A stretch of DNA of 61,605 nucleotides, filler included, from an uncultured bacterium (GTDB lineage: Bacteria > Hinthialibacterota > Hinthialibacteria > Hinthialibacterales > Hinthialibacteraceae): assembly GCA_964449065.1 (NCBI GenBank). It is 20 parts of 20 records of this genome, joined end to end, with 100 filler letters (N's around TTAATTAATTAA, not from the genome) between each part and the next. Parts side by side here need not be neighbours in the genome. Positions count along the whole stretch, not along the records: positions 3,264 to 6,362 come from CAYVAZ010000473.1; 19 more parts are not named here. One strand, 5' to 3'. The notes below the pieces were generated by a model. The model was not told the DNA's origin and did not search any database. It saw nothing but the letters and a program-made list of their open reading frames with translations. Positions 4,408 through 49,683 of the stretch are shown piece by piece. The number at the start of each line of letters is the position of its first letter. Positions within the stretch are counted from its first letter, which is position 1. A program made the position numbers and the translations under genes.

Positions 4408-5010
4408 ATGAGAAAGAAATTTGCATTTACGTTGATTGAACTGTTAATTGTTGTTGCCATTATCGGCATTTTAGCCGCCATCGCCGTACCCAACTTTCTA
4501 AACGCGCAAATGAAAGCCCGTTTGGCTCAGGTTGAGTCAAACATGAAAGCCCTAAGCACATCCATGATGACCTATCAGGTTGATTGGGGGTCCTTGCCGC
4601 TTCATGATCCCGCCCACAACCAAAATATTTTGGGCAATGGTTTAACCACACCGGTTGCCTACATTGCGAAAGTTCCACTGGATATCTTTCAAACCGGAAA
4701 CATGGCCGAAACCACACAAATGTTTAGCGGCGGCAGCGGACGGGCAGCGGAAATTCATCCCGAACCGTTTTATGCGCCGTCGTTCGGTCATCCTGCATTA
4801 GACAACAACGTTCCCCCCATTGGCAGCGGCGGCGATTTAACCCTGCGATTTATTGACGACCCCGCTCTTCTCAGCAAAGCCCGTTCGCAGTATTTCACCG
4901 GTCGGTATCTGGTCAGTGTAGGCCCCGACCAACGCCATAATTATCCCGGAACCTATCACATCAGCAACGGCCTTAACAGCAGCGGCGATATGATTCGCGT
5001 TGTGCCTTAA
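4408..5010 (+). CDS. Prepilin-type N-terminal cleavage/methylation protein (GspG-like pseudopilin)
   Basis: KKFA|FTLIELLIVVAIIGILAAIAVPNF class III signal; GGGAGA RBS. Confidence 0.92.
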   Translation: MRKKFAFTLIELLIVVAIIGILAAIAVPNFLNAQMKARLAQVESNMKALSTSMMTYQVDWGSLPLHDPAHNQNILGNGLTTPVAYIAKVPLDIFQTGNMAETTQMFSGGSGRAAEIHPEPFYAPSFGHPALDNNVPPIGSGGDLTLRFIDDPALLSKARSQYFTGRYLVSVGPDQRHNYPGTYHISNGLNSSGDMIRVVP

Positions 5011-5076: not shown

Positions 5077-5871
5077 ATGAAACACGCATTCAAGCTGTTC
5101 ACAACAGCGGCACTCGTCTTTTCGGTCTCATCCGTATCTTACGGGCAAAACTTAGTCGGGCATTGGGAATTTGAAGAAGGATCAGGGACTGTTACAGCGG
5201 ATTTAAGTGGTAACGGCAACGATGGGGAAATTTTTAACGCCGATATCGGCGGTCTTGGGGATGGAGCGGAAACGTTTTGGTTAGTGGACCCAGACCGGGG
5301 AAATGTGGGCAGTTTTTTTGGCGATGCCTCCAGTGCCTATGTTTTAACGGCAAATGACATCCCCGTTATGACCCTTGACCAAAGTTTTACGTGGGCCTTT
5401 TGGGCAAACGATTTATCAGACGGCGCCCCTAACAACATTATCTTGGGAAACCGAATGGATTTAACGCCCGCGGATTTTGTCCCCCGCCAATTCATCAAAT
5501 TTACGCCGACCAAATTTGAATGGCACATGAACGGCAACGGTAATGACAATTTAGAGTACGGTCCGGAAGAAGATACGGCCGCAAACGATATCCCGGATGG
5601 TGTTTGGATGCATCACGCCGTTGTTAAAGATGGTCCGACTATCACCTATTACCGCAATGGTGAAGCGATGAACTCGAAAGACATCACCCAGCCTTTAGCA
5701 GAACCGCAGCCGCTTTTCATCGGCGGGGATAATGAAGGCAGTGACGGTGAAAACTGGGCGGGGATGATTGATGATGTGCGCATTTACGATGGGGCATTAT
5801 CCGCCGCCGATATTGCGGCCTTAGCGGGCGGCCAGACATCAAAAATCGAAGATTTCGATCTCTACAAATAA
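5077..5871 (+). CDS. Secreted LamG/concanavalin-A-like jellyroll protein
   Basis: Signal peptide; LVGHWEFEEGSG...DLSGNGNDG, WMHHAVV, G.IDDVRIYDGALS. Confidence 0.9.
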   Translation: MKHAFKLFTTAALVFSVSSVSYGQNLVGHWEFEEGSGTVTADLSGNGNDGEIFNADIGGLGDGAETFWLVDPDRGNVGSFFGDASSAYVLTANDIPVMTLDQSFTWAFWANDLSDGAPNNIILGNRMDLTPADFVPRQFIKFTPTKFEWHMNGNGNDNLEYGPEEDTAANDIPDGVWMHHAVVKDGPTITYYRNGEAMNSKDITQPLAEPQPLFIGGDNEGSDGENWAGMIDDVRIYDGALSAADIAALAGGQTSKIEDFDLYK

Positions 5872-16157: not shown

Positions 16158-16943
16158 TTAGAACAATTCCCAATCGGCAACTTCCGTATCACCCAAGGCC
16201 ATGAGGGCTTGTATTTCTTCTTGCGATAATTCACGGCTATGGATGCGAATTTCATCCACCAAGCCGATGTAGAATTGATTGATTGTCCCTTGCAGGCGGC
16301 TGCCGATTTCTACCGGGGTACCGCCGCCGTCAAATCCAGCGGTGTCAATGATGACATCTGGATTGCCCATGCCGGATACTGCTTCCAATTCTCCGTCAAT
16401 ATAGTGGCGTACATCTTCCATCAAAAACCCACCATCAATGAATACGGACGCAACATGATGCCATTCTCCATCATTGAGAACGGTAGACCCAATGATGAAA
16501 GACCCTTGAATTTCCGTACGAATTGCACCGACTGTTCCATTATCGGCAGTTTGATTCATGCGGGTATGCCATTTGGTACCGTTTTCTGTTGATAACCCCC
16601 ACCCCACGATACCGCTGGAGTCGTCTACCACCCAATCGGTGCGAACCCAATAGGTGATGGTACGCGCGGTGTCGCCTGTAATGCCATCCCAATCCGGTAT
16701 GATTAAATCGTCATCCCCGTCAAACTCTAGCGCCCCGCCGCGTTTGCCACCGACCCACTGTGCCTGTCCGTTGCGGAACTCGGCATCGCGCCCGTTGCCG
16801 GACGCATCAGCCGCTACGGTACCGCCGCCTTCATCCAGACTGAGATAGGCTTCCAAATTCGAATCGATATCCTGCGCCAAAACACTTGTTGCAACAAATA
16901 AACCGCTAAACAAAACCGCTAATCCCCATACTTTCTCCATCAT
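16158..16943 (-). CDS. Secreted LamG/concanavalin-A-like protein
   Basis: Signal peptide; LDEGGGTVAADASGNG, GALEFDG, DGEWHHVA, DEIRIHSRELS; GGAGG RBS. Confidence 0.9.
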   Translation of the reverse strand: MMEKVWGLAVLFSGLFVATSVLAQDIDSNLEAYLSLDEGGGTVAADASGNGRDAEFRNGQAQWVGGKRGGALEFDGDDDLIIPDWDGITGDTARTITYWVRTDWVVDDSSGIVGWGLSTENGTKWHTRMNQTADNGTVGAIRTEIQGSFIIGSTVLNDGEWHHVASVFIDGGFLMEDVRHYIDGELEAVSGMGNPDVIIDTAGFDGGGTPVEIGSRLQGTINQFYIGLVDEIRIHSRELSQEEIQALMALGDTEVADWELF

Positions 16944-25836: not shown

Positions 25837-28299
25837 ATGAGTGTGGATCACATCGCAGATGCCATTGTCGAGCTGTCGCGAACCGATGCCGGGGCGGCCA
25901 TCGAAAAGGCCACCGAATTCACCGATGCGCTTCTCGCTCTGACACCGGCCAGACAGGGCGCAGGCCTCTTCAGCCTGACGAAGCGGCTGCGCAAGGCGCG
26001 TGCGTTCGACGTGCTTGAGGGCGTCTGCGAAACGGTGGAAGCAGCGGGCATCTGGTGGGGCTGGCCGATGAGCCATCACGCCCAGGCCCTGATCGAGCGC
26101 GGGGCCAGCCTTCCGGCCATTGGATTGCTGCAAAAAGCCCGCGAGGCCGCACAGGATGAACGCGACAGCAAGCTTTTCGCCGATGCCTGGGCGCTGGAGG
26201 GGCGCGCCTACAAGGATTTGTTTGTCACGGGCGTTCGGCGTTTCCCGCGACCGGCCCCGACTGTGCTCGAAACCTTCGCGCGCAGGGCCGAAGCCGCCTA
26301 TGGCAAGGCCTACCGCCAGCTTGCCGGTACGCCTGAGGCACATTATCCCGCGATCAACATGCTTGCCATGGGCCGGCTCGCCGAACGCGAGGGCTTCGCG
26401 CTTGAGCCGCTGGACCCGCTGATCGGTCTGGCCGAGGGTGTTGTTGCGGAGGTCAGTGGGCGCAGGTCCAGTGATCCGGGCAATCTGCATGCCTGGGACA
26501 TTGCCTCGGCCGCCGAGGCAGCCGCCTATCTCGGACACTGGGAAGAGGCACGAGATCGCGTCAGGGACTATATCGTGGCGGCGGGCGATGATGCCTTTGC
26601 GCTGGCCGGGACGCTGCGCCAGTTCGATTTGCTCTACGGCGGGATGACGAAGGTACCGCAGGTCGTCGAAGTGCTCGACCATCTAAAATTGGCCCTGATG
26701 AAGGCCGAGGGCGGTTCGGTCCAGCTGACACACAAGCAAACCGCGCGGCTGGTAAGGGCACCGTCCGGCGGCATGTCCATCGGCGATGATGGCGAGCCGG
26801 AACAGTCAACCGATGTCGAGGCTGTGCATGAACGCGTCGCCGATATGGACGCAATGCTTGAAAAGGTCTGGGGGGCTGAGGCCGGCATTTCCCACCGCAA
26901 GCTGCAGGACGTCATGCAGCGCGCCCGCGCGGTCGCCCGGGTGATGATGCAGACAGAGCGGTCGTCACGCCAGACCATCGGCACCGGCTTCCTCATCAGG
27001 GGGGAGCTGGCTTCGGACACGCTCAGGGGCGAGGTTCTGTTCCTGACCAATGCCCATGTGGTCTGCAATGATTATCGGGACGCGCCGGCGCGGGCAGGGG
27101 AGGCCTGGGCCTCGTTCGATGCGTCTCCGCAGCTGGGAGACCTCGAACTTAAAAACCTGCTCTGGTCCTCGCCGCCGGACGAGCATGATGTTTCGATCTT
27201 CAAGGTCAGGGCTTCGGGTCGCAGGGGTCAGCATGTGCGAGAGGTGGCGAACCTCATGGCGCTCGCAAAGGGCCTGCCGCATCTGCACCAGCAGCGCGAT
27301 GGCAAGAAGGTGCCTATAAGAGTTTACGACATCGGCCACCGGGCGGGTGAGGACCTGTCCTATTCCATGCGTGACAATGAGCTGATCGATTTCGAGAATG
27401 TCTATGGTGAGGCGCCCGGCCCGGAACCTCGCCGCATCCATTACCTCGCGCCGAAGGCGCCAGGAAGTGCAGGAAGCCCGGTGTTCAATGCCCGCACGCT
27501 GGAGCTGATTGGCATCCGCCATGCCCGTGGGAACCTGCCGAGGCTGAACGGTGCGGAAGGCAGGTATAATGTCGCAGAGGCGCTGTGGATCAGGCCTCTG
27601 CTCACCGCTTTTGCCGACACGATAGTTGCGCGTCCCCCTGAAAAGTCCGCCGAACGTGATGGACAGCAGAAGCGGTCAGCGGATGCCGGAACCCGCTTCA
27701 CTGTCGCGCTCGATTTCGCGCTGAAATGGCGAGGCGGCTATTCCAACCACCCTGCCGACCGGGGCGGGGCGACCAACCGTGGCATCACGCAGGCGACCTA
27801 TGATGCCTGGCTTGAAGCGCAGGGCGAGGATGTCCGCTCGGTGAAGCTCCTCACCGAGGAGGAAATGCACGCGATCTACCGGGCCAATTACTGGCAGGCG
27901 GCGCGGTGTGATCGATTTGCCCCGAACATCGACTGGCTGATGTTCGACATTGCGGTGAATAGCGGGCCACGCGGCGCTGCGAAAATCCTCCAGCGCGCGC
28001 TGACGGCCAGTGGTGCCGTGGTCGCGGTGGACGGCGTGATCGGTCCGAAAACCATCGCAGCGACAAAGCTGGTAGAGCTGATCGAGCTCGGAAAGGAGAT
28101 GATCCGCGAACGCCTCGCTCTTTATGACCGGATCGTCGCGCAGCGGCCCGACCAGTCGGTCTTTCTGCAGGGCTGGCGCAACCGGACGCTTGACCTTTCG
28201 CGGGCTGCCGAACTGGATGATTCTGATAAAGTGCTTGAGGGACTGGAGACCACCGTCATTCAGCCTGAAGACACAGGCTTTGCAGAATTCATCGACTGA
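25837..28299 (+). CDS. Multidomain protein: TPR-like sensor (TRAFs-binding/TPR-S-like) + trypsin-like peptidase + GH108 lysozyme-like/PG-binding domain
   Basis: GRAYKD, HYPAIN, WDIASAAEA (TPR part); GTGFLI, LTNAHVV, DVSIF, GSAGSPVF (trypsin fold); GGYSNHPADRGGATNRGIT, FDIAVNSG, DGVIGPKT, GWRNR (GH108); GGGAGA RBS. Confidence 0.85.
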   Translation: MSVDHIADAIVELSRTDAGAAIEKATEFTDALLALTPARQGAGLFSLTKRLRKARAFDVLEGVCETVEAAGIWWGWPMSHHAQALIERGASLPAIGLLQKAREAAQDERDSKLFADAWALEGRAYKDLFVTGVRRFPRPAPTVLETFARRAEAAYGKAYRQLAGTPEAHYPAINMLAMGRLAEREGFALEPLDPLIGLAEGVVAEVSGRRSSDPGNLHAWDIASAAEAAAYLGHWEEARDRVRDYIVAAGDDAFALAGTLRQFDLLYGGMTKVPQVVEVLDHLKLALMKAEGGSVQLTHKQTARLVRAPSGGMSIGDDGEPEQSTDVEAVHERVADMDAMLEKVWGAEAGISHRKLQDVMQRARAVARVMMQTERSSRQTIGTGFLIRGELASDTLRGEVLFLTNAHVVCNDYRDAPARAGEAWASFDASPQLGDLELKNLLWSSPPDEHDVSIFKVRASGRRGQHVREVANLMALAKGLPHLHQQRDGKKVPIRVYDIGHRAGEDLSYSMRDNELIDFENVYGEAPGPEPRRIHYLAPKAPGSAGSPVFNARTLELIGIRHARGNLPRLNGAEGRYNVAEALWIRPLLTAFADTIVARPPEKSAERDGQQKRSADAGTRFTVALDFALKWRGGYSNHPADRGGATNRGITQATYDAWLEAQGEDVRSVKLLTEEEMHAIYRANYWQAARCDRFAPNIDWLMFDIAVNSGPRGAAKILQRALTASGAVVAVDGVIGPKTIAATKLVELIELGKEMIRERLALYDRIVAQRPDQSVFLQGWRNRTLDLSRAAELDDSDKVLEGLETTVIQPEDTGFAEFID

Positions 28300-28326: not shown

Positions 28327-28702
28327 CTGGTCCTGTCAGGCAAACCGCTTGAAGCACCCTGCTTGACTTCGCCGCCTTAACGGGTGAGCCAATAATTCCG
28401 CTATTTCAAGACTTCGCCCAAGATCATCCGGCTTGCCGATATGATGTATCGTAAGCGTTGTCTGACGACCACCGCTTCGCCGGGTTGTCTCTGTGGCCTG
28501 CATTGCTGATCTTNNNNNNNNNNNNNNNNNNNNNNNNNNNNNNNNNNNNNNNNNNNNTTAATTAATTAANNNNNNNNNNNNNNNNNNNNNNNNNNNNNNN
28601 NNNNNNNNNNNNNCCGTTACATTGCTGAAGTCCGGCTCGCCTAAATCCACCGGCTGGAATTGACTGCCAGTGCCGTAGCCGAGATTCGCGAAGCGGTATG
28701 AG

Positions 28703-30796
28703 TTATTTGTAATGTAAATAACCCGGAACATGCGAAGTGTTTTGATCGATGAACGTTGCGAGGTCTTTGATGCGGATCACATCACTGCGGGTGACAATCT
28801 TGCTGCCATCCGGGGAAAACTCCGGCGTGCCGTCATCACGAAATTTACCAATCACTTCTCCAGATGCAAGATCCCAAAGTATAATTTCAGGGGGAAATGA
28901 CGTAAAGGTATTATGCCCCAATTGAAACAGTCTCTGCCCCCGGCTGATCAGATACTTTGAATCCGGCGAAAATCTTGGGGACTCCAATCGAAAACTGTTG
29001 AGGTAAAGCGTGTGCACCAATTCGCCTGTGGAGGTATCGGTGAGAAAAAACTTAGCCGGGTCCTCTTTACTCGCACTTACTCCCGTTAATGCATATTGAC
29101 CGTTCGGTGAAAATAATAAGTCGGATATGGAAGGAAATATAACACGACGCGGATCATCAATGATAAATTGTTGCAGAAGTTCCTCTGTTTCTAAGTCTAA
29201 AAGTTTGAAAGTGAATATACCCGCTAGAAAAGGTTGTTGTTCATCATCCCGAAACAAAAGTGTGCTCCCATCGAAGGATAATTCAAAATCGACTCGATTT
29301 ACAAGTCTTGTTATTGAGTTTAATTCTTCACCGGTGAATATATCCCACCGGCGGATTTGAATCTCAAATTCAAATCCATCCTCTTTTACTTCATTTTCAT
29401 CTTCGGCTTTACGTACCACCGTCACGATACGTTTGCCATTGCCGGACAGATCGAACCCGAAACCATCACCCGATTCTACGATAGGGTTGAAATCCAGTTG
29501 GTTGATTATCTCGCCCGTTTCCAAATCCAGCACATCCATTTGACGGTTGGATATCCCCGTCACGCCCCAGGCTTGATCACCATCCGCGAAGGTTTGCGCA
29601 ATGCGTTGAAACGAATCCGGCAAGGTGCGAAGGCGTATCCATTTTTCCGTATCCCACAATTCGGTTTGGCCGCCCTGTTGGATGATGGCGCTTTTGCCGT
29701 CGGGCATATATTCAAAATGGGTGATATTGGGCACAATTGGAAACGCAAACACCTGTTGGTTTTCAAATACATTCCATACTTCCAGCTTTGCGCTGTTTTG
29801 CGCCACGGCAAACATCCCGCTCTCTGTTGCACGAATTTGCTGGATGGGTAATTCAATGTCCAACAAGTCTTGGCGTTGCAAGGTGGTCATATCCCAAGCT
29901 GCAAGTTGGCCGTTGTTGTTGCCTGCCACCAGAGTTTGCCCATCTGGTGTAAACGCAAGTGCAGTGACTTCTCCTTCAAATGATAATGTTTGATCAACTT
30001 GGCTGGATTCGATATCAACAAATTGGATTTCGCCATCTTTTTCACCTACTACCAATGATGAACTGTCGGGAGAAAATTGAATGGTATTCGCATCAAACCG
30101 GAAAGCCGTACCTTCAACAAAACTGGTAATATCGGGTATAGTTTTTTTGTGGGCTAAAGTTGTGCTATCAATAACAGTAAACCTCGACATATTAAACTCT
30201 ATTAATACAATATTTCGTCCATCTGGCGAGACTTCTGCTTTAATGTTAAAATTACTGATCGTACGAATGTTACTGTCAAATCTTGAATCTTCTTTGAATG
30301 GTTCCCATAATAAGTCGCCACAACTCGAATTTGTTGGAATTACCAAGCGTTGCCCATCACTAAGAAATGCCGGTTTTAGTGCAGAAATACTTCCTTCGCA
30401 AGGTGATCCTCCTGAGATATCTAAAACATTGATTGTTTCACTAGTGTTTAGGTGTTGAAATATACCCATTTTAGTGAACTCACGACTTAAAAACCCGGTA
30501 AAAAGATATTCATTATTTGGAGATATGGCGATTGATGTGATTAATTTATCCGGAAACGCTCTTTCAAATGGCAAAATTTTTCCATCTATCATATTATAGA
30601 TAAACACATCCTTACCGGCACTGATTGCCACCAGGCTGCCGTCTTGCGATAAATCCGACGCTCTAATTTCCCCGACGCCTAATATCACTTCATCATTGTT
30701 TATGATGATGGGAATCTCTTGGGCGGCAGTATTTTGAACAGCTAAGAAGCAAAAAGCCGTCAACAGTAGAGTATATATGTTAAATATTTTGTTCAT
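28703..30796 (-). CDS. Secreted WD40/beta-propeller repeat protein
   Basis: Signal peptide; repeated FSPDG/SPDS/LAFTPDG motifs with W-D ends. Confidence 0.9.
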   Translation of the reverse strand: MNKIFNIYTLLLTAFCFLAVQNTAAQEIPIIINNDEVILGVGEIRASDLSQDGSLVAISAGKDVFIYNMIDGKILPFERAFPDKLITSIAISPNNEYLFTGFLSREFTKMGIFQHLNTSETINVLDISGGSPCEGSISALKPAFLSDGQRLVIPTNSSCGDLLWEPFKEDSRFDSNIRTISNFNIKAEVSPDGRNIVLIEFNMSRFTVIDSTTLAHKKTIPDITSFVEGTAFRFDANTIQFSPDSSSLVVGEKDGEIQFVDIESSQVDQTLSFEGEVTALAFTPDGQTLVAGNNNGQLAAWDMTTLQRQDLLDIELPIQQIRATESGMFAVAQNSAKLEVWNVFENQQVFAFPIVPNITHFEYMPDGKSAIIQQGGQTELWDTEKWIRLRTLPDSFQRIAQTFADGDQAWGVTGISNRQMDVLDLETGEIINQLDFNPIVESGDGFGFDLSGNGKRIVTVVRKAEDENEVKEDGFEFEIQIRRWDIFTGEELNSITRLVNRVDFELSFDGSTLLFRDDEQQPFLAGIFTFKLLDLETEELLQQFIIDDPRRVIFPSISDLLFSPNGQYALTGVSASKEDPAKFFLTDTSTGELVHTLYLNSFRLESPRFSPDSKYLISRGQRLFQLGHNTFTSFPPEIILWDLASGEVIGKFRDDGTPEFSPDGSKIVTRSDVIRIKDLATFIDQNTSHVPGYLHYK

Positions 30797-31002: not shown

Positions 31003-31612
31003 TTATTTGAATTGAATCCATTTGTCCTTATCCCACCCTGAGGTTTGCTGCGGCACGCCTGCAAACGCCCATACACGCCCGCCGGATGAAACGGCGGCCC
31101 CCGAGGTTTCGTTTGGATTAAAGGCCGAGAATAAAATATCCGTGATGCCATCGCCGTTAAAATCACCCACCGATAACGCCTGGGTAAGTACGGTTTCAAT
31201 CGGATTTTGCACCGGCTCGCCTAAGATCACTTCAATCTTGGGTTTTCGTTCTATCGTTTGGATCAATTTTGGATTATTATTTTCATCCAGTTTGAAGATT
31301 TGAAACGCTTCCGCTGCTAATGCTTCTTCTTTCGTGCTGGTGTCTCCGATCACAACTATCGGAAATGAGATATCTTGCCCTGAAGTAGCCGATTGATCTT
31401 GAAACGGAAATAGATGCGTGACACGGCTTATTTGCCGTTTGCCTGGGATCATAATCGGCATGGCACGAGATAAATCGGGAACCGGCAAGCGTGACAGAAT
31501 ACGATCCACCAAAAAGGGAAACGCGATCACCGCTAAATCACTTTCCGCTTCCGTTTCCACACTGACCATGAGCGGGTCAAACAATACATCCACCGGGCGG
31601 ATCACACCTTCA
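31003..31612 (-). CDS. FG-GAP/VCBS-repeat protein, C-terminal part
   Basis: VGDFNGDGITDILFSA...GRVWAFAG. Confidence 0.75.
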
Positions 31613-37941: not shown

Positions 37942-38442
37942 TTATTGAGGCGCCCCAACCCGGTAGATATCGCCGTTGCTGATGATTCCATTGGAGGTGT
38001 CGTAGTGCAGTGTCTCCAACTCCATGTCGCTGTCCGGTGCGTAGCTAAACAGCACATAGATTTCGCCCAATACGGGATCGCTGACATAATGGATGTAAGG
38101 GCCGTCGATTCCAAAGATTCCGCCGGCAAACCGGTCCGGTAATTCCTTGATGAATGGATCTTTGGGGATGGATGATAGATACGGTACCGGTGTGGTGAGT
38201 TTCCATGTGTAAGCCACAGCATCGGGATTCATGAAAGGGTGTTTGCTGGGAGGGTATTCGTTATGGTCGATCTGATATTGATCCAAACCGACGGAAACGG
38301 CGCGGAGATCGGCCAACACCCCAGCCACTTTGGCTTTGATTTGCGCGTTCATGAAATTGGGGACGGCAATGGCCGCCAAGATACCGATGATGGCGACAAC
38401 GATTAAAAGTTCGATTAATGTAAATCCATTTTTGTATGCCAT
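37942..38442 (-). CDS. Prepilin-type N-terminal cleavage/methylation protein (GspG-like)
   Basis: KNG|FTLIELLIVVAIIGILAAIAVPNF; paralogue of 4408..5010. Confidence 0.92.
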   Translation of the reverse strand: MAYKNGFTLIELLIVVAIIGILAAIAVPNFMNAQIKAKVAGVLADLRAVSVGLDQYQIDHNEYPPSKHPFMNPDAVAYTWKLTTPVPYLSSIPKDPFIKELPDRFAGGIFGIDGPYIHYVSDPVLGEIYVLFSYAPDSDMELETLHYDTSNGIISNGDIYRVGAPQ

Positions 38443-38504
38443 AACATATCCGAAACCGTATGATGCAGGTATAATCCTTTGTATCAACCGTTGAGGAGTT
38501 ATCA

Positions 38505-39350
38505 ATGAAGCACGTGATACTATGCACGTATTTTATCGTATTGGCAATGGTTTGTTCCGGTCAAGTTCCGCTGACTGTGGTGGGCTGGAACGTCGAGCAA
38601 GGCTACAAACCGGAAGCGGAAATCACCTGGATTGAAGACCGCCTAACGGAAATAGACCGCGTGGATATTTGGGGGCTGACGGAAATTTCACGGGAGTATG
38701 TGGATGAATACACGTCAGCCATCGAAGCGGATGAAGGCAGCCCCTTTGCCGCGGTTGTCTCTGAAATGACGCACGGTACCGACCTGATGGCGGTTGTGTA
38801 TGATGCAGACCGGTTTGAAAAATTATGGCACGCCGAGTTGGTGGGCTTTAACTATGCGCTGTCAAAAAACACCCGCTTCCAGCGCCCTCCGCTTGCCGTG
38901 CATTTTAAGGATACGGTTTCCGGCCAGCATTTTGTGGTGATGGTAAACCATTTGGCCCGCGGCAATGAAGACCACCGCCACACCCAAGCCGAACGCTTGC
39001 AGCAGTGGGGAAGCAAACAAAACATCCCCATCATCGCGGTTGGCGACTACAATTTCGATTGGGATGTAGAGAACGGCGACAGCAACCACGATGAAGGTTA
39101 TGACCTCATGACCTCTGGCGGTTTTTTTGCGTGGCTGCGTCCCGGCACGTTAATCCGCACGCAATGCTCGCCCACCAATGCCGGCGGCTGCCGCTACAAC
39201 AGCGTGCTGGATTTTGTGTTTGTGGCAAATGAGGCGAAACAGTGGCAAGGCGTCTCGGAAATCATGGTCAAAGAAGGCGACTTCCCGGATGATGACATCA
39301 AAGCCGACCACCGCCCGGTGATGGCAAAGTTTATTCTTCCCCTAGAGTAA
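38505..39350 (+). CDS. Secreted endonuclease/exonuclease/phosphatase (EEP) family protein
   Basis: VVGWNVE, GLTE, VNHL, VGDYN, LDFVF, DHRPV. Confidence 0.9.
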   Translation: MKHVILCTYFIVLAMVCSGQVPLTVVGWNVEQGYKPEAEITWIEDRLTEIDRVDIWGLTEISREYVDEYTSAIEADEGSPFAAVVSEMTHGTDLMAVVYDADRFEKLWHAELVGFNYALSKNTRFQRPPLAVHFKDTVSGQHFVVMVNHLARGNEDHRHTQAERLQQWGSKQNIPIIAVGDYNFDWDVENGDSNHDEGYDLMTSGGFFAWLRPGTLIRTQCSPTNAGGCRYNSVLDFVFVANEAKQWQGVSEIMVKEGDFPDDDIKADHRPVMAKFILPLE

Positions 39351-48690: not shown

Positions 48691-49683
48691 ATGAAAACCT
48701 ATTTCAACCTATTTCTCTTACTTATTACCTTTGGCTTTCTATCAATAAACTCTTTTGCACAAGAACTGCAACCCACTGATGATGAACAATTTATGCTTGA
48801 ACTCATCAACCGTGCCCGCATGAATCCTGCCGAAGAAGGGGTCATCCTAGCCAACCACTCCGATCCAAACATTCAAGGTGCAATAAACTTTTTCGGTGTG
48901 GATAAAAACGCCATGATTCAAGAGTTTTCCACCTATCCATCAAGCCCCCCTCTTGCCTGGAACCCATTGTTAACCCAAGCCGCACGCAGACACAGCGCCG
49001 ATTTGAAAGCAAACAACTTCCAAGGCCATGGTGGTACGGACGGCTCTACTCTAAGCAGCCGCATCACCGATACCGGCTATGAATGGCGTGCCATCGCGGA
49101 AAACGTGTTTTCATTCGGCCGCTCTATACCTCATGCTCACGCCGGCTTTGTTGTCGATTGGGGAGTCCCCTCATTGGGGCACCGTAAAAATACAATCGAA
49201 TTTCACCAAGAACCTATTTATACAGAGGTTGGAATCGGTATATTAGAAACAGATTCAATCAATACAAAAAGGTCTAATATAAACCCAAGCGTGGTAGAAA
49301 TTTTACCTGCGCCTGGAGTGGAACTGCTGCAATCTTCCGATGTCGGGCCGCTGGTTGTCACCATTGATTTTGCCACAACCTTCAATCCCATCCCCAAAGT
49401 CTTGGGTGTAGTCCACAAAGATAGTGATGGCAATGAATTCTATACACCTGGAGAAGGGCAGGGGAATATCACTGTTTCCATCGTGGAAACAGGTTCATCT
49501 ACAACCACCTACAACAGCGGCGGTTTCCACATAAATGTATCCACTCCCGGAACCTATACGCTTGCGATTCAGGGAGATGGTATTCAACCCATGCAAAAGT
49601 CCTTTGACATTTCCCAAGACAATGTTAAAGTCGATTTCATGGTAACTGAACCAACCTCGGTATATCACTGGATGATGTACTAA
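48691..49683 (+). CDS. Secreted CAP/SCP-domain protein
   Basis: EQFMLELINRARMNP, PPLAWN..L..AARRHS, AENV, GHRKN, EVGIG. Confidence 0.9.
   Translation: MKTYFNLFLLLITFGFLSINSFAQELQPTDDEQFMLELINRARMNPAEEGVILANHSDPNIQGAINFFGVDKNAMIQEFSTYPSSPPLAWNPLLTQAARRHSADLKANNFQGHGGTDGSTLSSRITDTGYEWRAIAENVFSFGRSIPHAHAGFVVDWGVPSLGHRKNTIEFHQEPIYTEVGIGILETDSINTKRSNINPSVVEILPAPGVELLQSSDVGPLVVTIDFATTFNPIPKVLGVVHKDSDGNEFYTPGEGQGNITVSIVETGSSTTTYNSGGFHINVSTPGTYTLAIQGDGIQPMQKSFDISQDNVKVDFMVTEPTSVYHWMMY

Follow-up and report, generated by a model that had tools for sequence, protein, structure and literature searches.

The DNA analyzed here (the window, 61,605 nucleotides) consists of contigs of ca. 3 kb joined end to end, taken from the 5.22-Mb, 515-contig assembly of an uncultured Hinthialibacterota bacterium, whose genome is 87% complete. 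An earlier note had claimed that five proteins encoded in it, of different folds, end alike at the C-terminus. Their translations and C-termini are as quoted there, on contigs C473, C477, C481 (twice) and C487. These genes and two neighboring or related pilin genes are listed below, with the tag score that is defined in the next paragraph.

4408..5010, plus strand: type IV pilin of an expanded family of ~100 members, directly 5' of the tagged LamG gene at 5077, same direction, gap 67
5077..5871, plus strand: LamG (PF13385) protein, Sec-exported, tagged, with F in place of W; score 14.2
5836..5871, plus strand: C-terminal tag of this LamG protein and the stop codon
16158..16943, minus strand: LamG protein, Sec-exported, canonical tag at 16158-16190; score 19.3
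28703..30796, minus strand: WD40 propeller, Sec-exported, degenerate tag-like tail at 28703-28738; score -1.9
31003..31612, minus strand: FG-GAP protein, 5'-truncated, divergent W-containing tail at 31003-31044, doubtful member; score -14.0
37942..38505, minus strand: second type IV pilin of the expanded family
48691..49683, plus strand: CAP plus CarboxypepD-type Ig protein, Sec-exported, canonical tag at 49651-49683; score 22.5

Genes were called with our own hexamer model (4,027 genes), and a position-weight matrix was run over the 10 C-terminal residues encoded by each gene that reaches a stop codon and is 80 aa or longer, 3,626 genes in all. The scores are bimodal: 79 genes score 12 or more, none falls between 9 and 12, and the next best reaches 8.9. 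The genome-wide consensus is [PG]-[ST]-x-V-x-x-W-[SEM]-L-[YFH], followed by 0-2 residues, or in a looser form [PG]-[ST]-x-V-x-x-W-x-L-[YFH]. The core is specifically W (68 of 79 tags), where the note had proposed any aromatic residue; V/I/L/M occupies W-3 in 77 of 79 and L/V/I/M occupies W+2 in 72 of 79. The tag is acidic, with L favored at W+2, and one or two residues trail it in 20 of the 79 proteins. Of the segments that score at least 12, 79 finish at the C-terminus or within two residues of it and just three lie farther in, at a distance of 3-59 residues, and a score of 9 or more was reached at random internal ends in 6 of 72,520 trials. Thus, the C-terminal tag is real and genome-wide. 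The count of 79 is probably too low, since a Lys-poor exported protein encoded between pilin genes (C30:9472-10653) has four more residues after a tag-like motif and scores 6.2.

On this scale, the CAP protein and both LamG proteins are clear members, and the WD40 and FG-GAP proteins are degenerate. A score of -1.9 is reached by 109, and one of -14 by 692, of the 3,626 genes, so that neither qualifies on its own. Because some of their relatives are clearly tagged at the corresponding place (three relatives of the WD40 protein, with scores of 14-17, and one of four relatives of the FG-GAP protein, with a score of 21), their tails probably represent decayed or variant tags. Among 12 close relatives of the LamG protein at 5077, five score at least 9, and the other seven are degenerate and score below 9. 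The WD40 gene also has a recent duplicate or strain copy, as 1,373 bases of the window (28614-29986; C481:1-1373) are 97.8% identical to C48:879-2251.

Tagged genes are strongly concentrated among exported proteins. With signal-peptide classes assigned by our own heuristic rather than by SignalP, the tag occurs in 71 of 905 signal-peptide genes, 7 of 1,981 "cytoplasmic" genes, 1 of 78 genes at contig edges, 0 of 407 genes with transmembrane helices, and 0 of 255 with both a signal peptide and a transmembrane helix; inspection by eye revealed a Sec or Tat leader on six of the seven "cytoplasmic" cases. Cross-validation between odd and even contigs gave the same picture (43/460 and 24/445 signal-peptide genes versus 4/998 and 1/983 cytoplasmic genes). 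The claim that cytoplasmic proteins lack the tag is therefore upheld, and equal frequency in the two classes is not what we observed.

The 79 tagged proteins fall into 54 BLAST sequence groups. A Pfam scan of 21 tagged proteins beyond those in the window identified fasciclin, FG-GAP/ASPIC, subtilase, Kelch, heparinase-like, CBM9, LamG and DUF1501 proteins, the Kelch protein with additional weak metallopeptidase matches, and eight proteins without a match. The tagged proteins are rich in N, S, T and G and poor in Lys (median 1.0% versus 5.1% in the comparison set); Lys makes up less than 2% of 63 of 75 tagged proteins, versus 59 of 690 other signal-peptide proteins. This composition suggests that their final location differs from that of other signal-peptide proteins. 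Gln follows the AxA-like site in 46 of 71 tagged and 190 of 728 other signal-peptide proteins, suggesting an N-terminal pyroglutamate.

The possibility that the tag is simply the last structural strand of each fold was ruled out by paralogues and homologues that replace it or go without it. In a pair of fasciclin paralogues that are 54% identical, one is tagged and the other is not, and the tag of one ASPIC/FG-GAP protein is missing from six paralogues. Among the 120 CAP homologues listed, the 14 closest finish in a tail of 12-13 residues, 13 of them scoring at least 9, whereas the other 106 have no tag and mostly show another domain or a low-complexity tail in its place. For LamG, 120 homologues comprise 15 that are tagged, 3 with PEP-CTERM, 42 with a Poribacteria-type tail (by regular expression) and 60 others, 10 of which carry PF18962. 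Homologous domains thus bear PEP-CTERM, T9SS or other tails at the equivalent spot, which argues that the tag is a movable module. At least 42 of the LamG homologues (P0147-P0240) finish in this different W-centered tail, and two of these carry the name Poribacteria. Verrucomicrobial CAP, subtilase and LamG proteins (L001:4719-6014, L001:6152-8326 and P0133) have at the tag position a common C-terminal domain of ~75 aa that matches no Pfam family, and the tag resembles part of this domain as found on CAP homologues.

The position shared with PEP-CTERM on LamG homologues (3 of 120), together with the Lys-poor, N/S/T/G-rich cargo, would fit a signal for a transpeptidase such as a sortase, exosortase or rhombosortase. 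We find this reading hardly tenable: the tag has neither a transmembrane helix nor a basic tail, none of the 662 genes of the two transmembrane classes is tagged, a regular expression found no PEP-CTERM-like tails in the genome, and no match to exosortase PF09721 was found in the 87% that the assembly covers. This agrees with the note, which had set the tag apart from PEP-CTERM. No existing NCBIfam or Pfam model of the tag matched the window proteins, and literature searches by tag or by lineage, confined to freely accessible papers, returned no description of it.

The note had further suggested a link to the expanded pilins. The genome holds ~100 type IV pilin paralogues whose N-termini are nearly identical, and genes for tagged proteins adjoin a pilin gene well above background (17 of 79 versus 28 of 729 other signal-peptide genes, p=1.6e-7), 15 of 18 such pairs being co-directional. 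One pilin per cargo, or co-expansion of the two families, was nevertheless rejected as an explanation, as counts over the phylum are decoupled: the expanded-pilin pattern has 29-192 matches in 28 of 35 phylum genomes, yet family f5 has 0-2 pilin-motif matches and up to 43 tags. The link to pili therefore stands as adjacency, but the likely reader of the tag is a single-copy minor pilin, which we call giant K, and not the ~100 expanded pilins.

Giant K is the fourth of four K-like pilins in the genome, a PilK/GspK-like minor pilin encoded outside the window in an H-I-J-K minor-pilin operon on contig C103 that continues on C269. It is ~2,200 aa long in close relatives (1,750-2,290 over the phylum), contains a lamin-tail-like segment and Asp-rich repeats, and, like the tagged cargo, is Lys-poor. 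Its N-terminal part is present in 34 of 35 phylum genomes, as one gene by match position, and the 35th genome has the C-terminal part. It matches the GspK models NF037980 (E 6.5e-5) and PF03934 (E 0.003), and hhalign relates it to the genome's own GspK (E 1.8e-5 and 5e-4). A PDB sequence search with giant K gave no match, one with an intact GspK only 3CI0_K at E 1.5, and look-ups of giant K by words and by sequence returned no record.

The informative feature of giant K is its end. In 16 loci that were fetched, the long K could be aligned in 15, and all 15 copies stop 2-3 residues past the penultimate strand, as does that of genome G015; in genome G028, giant K lies in two frames and stops five residues past this strand. 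A profile of the giant K end, run against 1.84 billion proteins, retrieved 31: no more than 8 residues follow in 25, one is an unrelated repeat protein, and five are intact GspK-like proteins that go on for 14-20 residues with a strand, one of their clusters being named GspK from Ca. Aerophobetes. In a MAFFT alignment, the last R of giant K falls on R437 of the genome's intact 451-aa GspK, for which AlphaFold predicts three terminal strands (413-422, 427-436 and 443-449; local pLDDT 65-71); the best non-HhH Foldseek matches of this model are XcpX/GspK, although weak (E 0.015-0.15). The model of a giant K fragment ends in two strands, at low confidence (mean pLDDT 44). By alignment and model, then, giant K is predicted to lack the last strand that intact GspK carries. 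The extra GspK strand is hydrophobic at -3, usually aromatic at 0 and hydrophobic at +3 in most intact copies, and the tag fits this spacing in 77, 79 and 74 of 79 cases, respectively. Judged by sequence, the K proteins on C115, C182 and C147 each keep their own final strand.

A type IVa pilus machine is also encoded. PilB, PilT, PilC, PilM/N, a secretin and a major pilin were all found, with PilT (above cut-off), two PilB/GspE-type ATPases and a pilin on C54, a platform gene and, after it, three pilins on C15, and PilM-PilN with a secretin on C8. Neither an ATPase nor a secretin gene was found in the giant K operon. By elimination, and from two loci at which an expanded-type pilin flanks it, we infer that the giant H-I-J-K operon serves the type IVa machine. 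All 35 phylum genomes have PilT, whereas the PilY1 family PF05567 was detected in none of them, versus 9 of 96 outside genomes; this points to a type IVa machine with a strand-short K and no classical donor. In passages of PMC9324843, Tad pili are the only pili mentioned for Hinthialibacterota, and the word "C-terminal" does not occur.

A known mechanism offers a model for such an arrangement. According to PMC13533445, the last ~10 residues of PilC/PilY1 complete the PilK sheet in trans, whereas GspK of type II secretion systems (T2SS) provides the final strand in cis. Kingella PilC2 requires W1498 and I1501, that is, W and W+3 (PMC13711793), and a crystal structure and peptide binding are reported in bioRxiv 10.64898/2026.09.18.752573. 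The tag shares with this plug a length of ~10 C-terminal residues, a central W, a hydrophobic residue at W+3 and a Sec-exported donor, and on the receiving side a PilK that is one strand short and a type IVa pilus with PilT. We therefore propose, with a probability of about 0.7, that by analogy the tag is a portable PilC/PilY1-like plug on giant K that loads many cargoes onto the tip of the type IVa pilus. Tagged exported proteins would dock on giant K, and the tag would complete the K sheet in trans through V at W-3, W, and the aromatic residue at W+3, stabilizing the tip complex, in line with published PilC/PilY1 work. The machine of PilB, PilT, PilC, PilM/N and secretin, which apparently has no minor pilins of its own and has no detected PilY1, would then extend the pilus with the cargo on top. 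The cargo might be displayed at the tip as adhesin or enzyme, or be released or exchanged; we favor display with exchange.

The likeness has limits. There are ~80 donors per genome, in at least 54 unrelated groups here, where the plug has one adhesin or a few; Tat leaders occur on some donors; and giant K is ~2,200 aa long. PilC tails carry charged residues after W (PMC13711793), whereas the tag is acidic and has L at W+2. A propeller that aids assembly is common to all known plug donors but missing from most tagged cargoes. As the PF05567 propeller was detected in none of the 35 phylum genomes searched, the tag would work like PilY1 rather than be PilY1. The note had supposed an uncharacterised system; since the PilC/PilY1 plug offers a known model, the system is not wholly unprecedented.

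In a variant of the plug reading, whose probability partly overlaps with it and which we consider doubtful, the giant H-I-J-K tip and a short T2SS-like pseudopilus would push tagged proteins out through a secretin and release them. Subtilase, Kelch, heparinase-like and CBM9 proteins among the cargo fit such release, as do the genome's 7 secretin and 11 GspE/PilB/PilT-family matches, and giant K is nearer to GspK, with its SAM/HhH-type segment, than to PilX. Like GspK/XcpX (PDB 3CI0, 5VTM and 6UTU), giant K has an N-terminus without Glu5, this segment, a terminal hairpin and the H-I-J-K gene order; unlike them, it lacks the last strand that GspK has in cis, exceeds them fivefold in length, and is not accompanied by E/F/G/L/M/D genes. 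The K proteins of C115, C182 and C147, by contrast, have their own last strand by sequence, and their T2SS-like loci look self-sufficient. In addition, PMC13533445 describes the buried strand as a load-bearing anchor and says that T2SS payloads do not use it.

The tag and giant K extend over the phylum, whose genomes are kin and not independent samples. In the family, every one of the 20 genomes has 29-93 matches to a DNA pattern of the tag, against 0-9 for the controls; genomes elsewhere in the order have 5-52, and those elsewhere in the class 2-45. With a stricter pattern the median is 30, versus 1 for the control, and 30 of 35 phylum genomes have at least 10 matches; genomes G028 and G023 have giant K but few tag matches (2 and 1 with the strict pattern, 2 and 5 with the first). 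A looser pattern with one trailing codon was discarded as too noisy. Of 366 outside genomes, no more than three have 10 or more strict matches (12-17), and these were rejected as tag carriers: in G400, 10 of 17 matches are one identical 30-mer repeat and there is no K-type match, and in G096 and G362 the matches, judged by the matched letters only, resemble AT-rich noise, G096 having no K-type match and G362 one. The earlier suggestion of a lineage-specific C-terminal sorting signal linked to pilins is supported: neither equal frequency in cytoplasmic proteins nor identity with the last strand of each fold was observed.

The phylum survey also bears on whether a PorV-like outer-membrane barrel reads the tag as a minimal T9SS-like signal, which we regard as very unlikely. 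A PorV/PorQ-like barrel is encoded on C165 (NF033709, E 6e-15, below the cut-off) and occurs in 29 of 35 phylum genomes, and the tag stands in for T9SS C-terminal domains (CTDs) on LamG homologues. However, the barrel was not found in six f2/f3 genomes, five with 15-52 tag matches and all with giant K, and a protein-level re-search of five f2/f3 genomes gave a best E of 0.05. A search for SprA in the 87% complete genome had no match, although its positive control was also silent, and the barrel gene follows that of a cohesin/dockerin-type protein without the tag. No T9SS CTD was matched by Pfam or NCBIfam on the five window proteins, or by Pfam on the 21 other tagged proteins. The cohesin/dockerin-like neighbor is an exported protein with Pro/Thr repeats directly followed by the barrel (C165:7203-11029), and both are extremely Lys-poor; a few other exported proteins finish in dockerin-like motifs. 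The genome's one T9SS-CTD protein lies with a large outer-membrane-receptor-like protein on C224, which has 38.8% GC and is probably bin contamination.

Alternatively, the tag could act independently of pili, as a non-covalent surface anchor or as a signal to a PDZ protease or chaperone in the periplasm, the short K being coincidental or completed by another subunit. PDZ ligands are typically a free hydrophobic or aromatic C-terminus, the genome encodes cohesin- and dockerin-like proteins, and the number of tags varies widely over the phylum. Still, we judge this quite unlikely. One or two trailing residues are tolerated in 20 of 79 tags, which argues against a PDZ ligand, and the proposal leaves unexplained both the pilin adjacency and a phylum-wide K without its matching strand where no PilY1 was detected.

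Other systems share single aspects of the proposed plug. In MSHA pili, MshQ, which is not a PilY1 protein, is predicted to plug the PilK homologue MshP, and in type IVb pili a minor pilin at the tip carries cargo, through a signal that is N-terminal; both are described with single dedicated partners. T9SS CTDs (PF18962) and PEP-CTERM are likewise interchangeable C-terminal modules on shared domains, with acidic, Lys-poor cargo, but the tag has no Ig-like CTD or transmembrane helix, and neither SprA nor exosortase was found in this genome. The Verru_Chthon cassette (TIGR02600, protein A) also combines a very large K-like pilin with a four-gene minor-pilin cassette, and TIGR02600 matches the giant K N-terminus weakly (E 6.5e-5, 21 bits versus a cut-off of 332 bits).

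We lean toward the view that the whole phylum has made the pilus plug a general address label. One strand-less PilK would serve 80-190 interchangeable adhesins, lectins and enzymes as a universal adaptor, their genes often lying next to a pilin gene of their own. The resulting pathway, which would display and secrete cargo at the pilus tip on a signal of ten residues, would fill the role that T9SS or PEP-CTERM has in other lineages. To our knowledge, type II/IV filament systems have so far had no simple, portable cargo signal. The novelty would probably lie in the generalization of a known plug mechanism to a proteome-scale signal, and the 2026 plug papers propose engineering a portable signal for cargo display. 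If the plug reading is correct, nature already has a short-signal route over the outer membrane that serves proteins as long as 1,370 residues, of dozens of unrelated folds, and needs no PilY1 propeller; one regular expression would predict the surface proteome of a phylum, and a PilK that ends one strand early would be the rule for finding the readers of other orphan C-terminal tags.

Several minor observations were made along the way. The Poribacteria-type W-centered tail of the LamG homologues might plug another strand-less PilK. Six divergent GspK-like proteins (P0258, P0262, P0264, P0266, P0270 and P0271), some of which are full-length with 878-1,906 aa, likewise end ahead of the last strand and possibly come from outside the phylum, where searches by locus and by name yielded no usable strand-less K. 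An exported protein of ~420 aa with a conserved C-terminal end and no known family (C269:1540-2811, L035, and relatives) comes after giant K in most of the family and order genomes examined, and may be a tip component or chaperone. Finally, positions 25837-28299 of the window encode an 820-aa fusion of TPR-S, trypsin, GH108 and peptidoglycan-binding domains, and a neighboring fragment has an identical C-terminal end.
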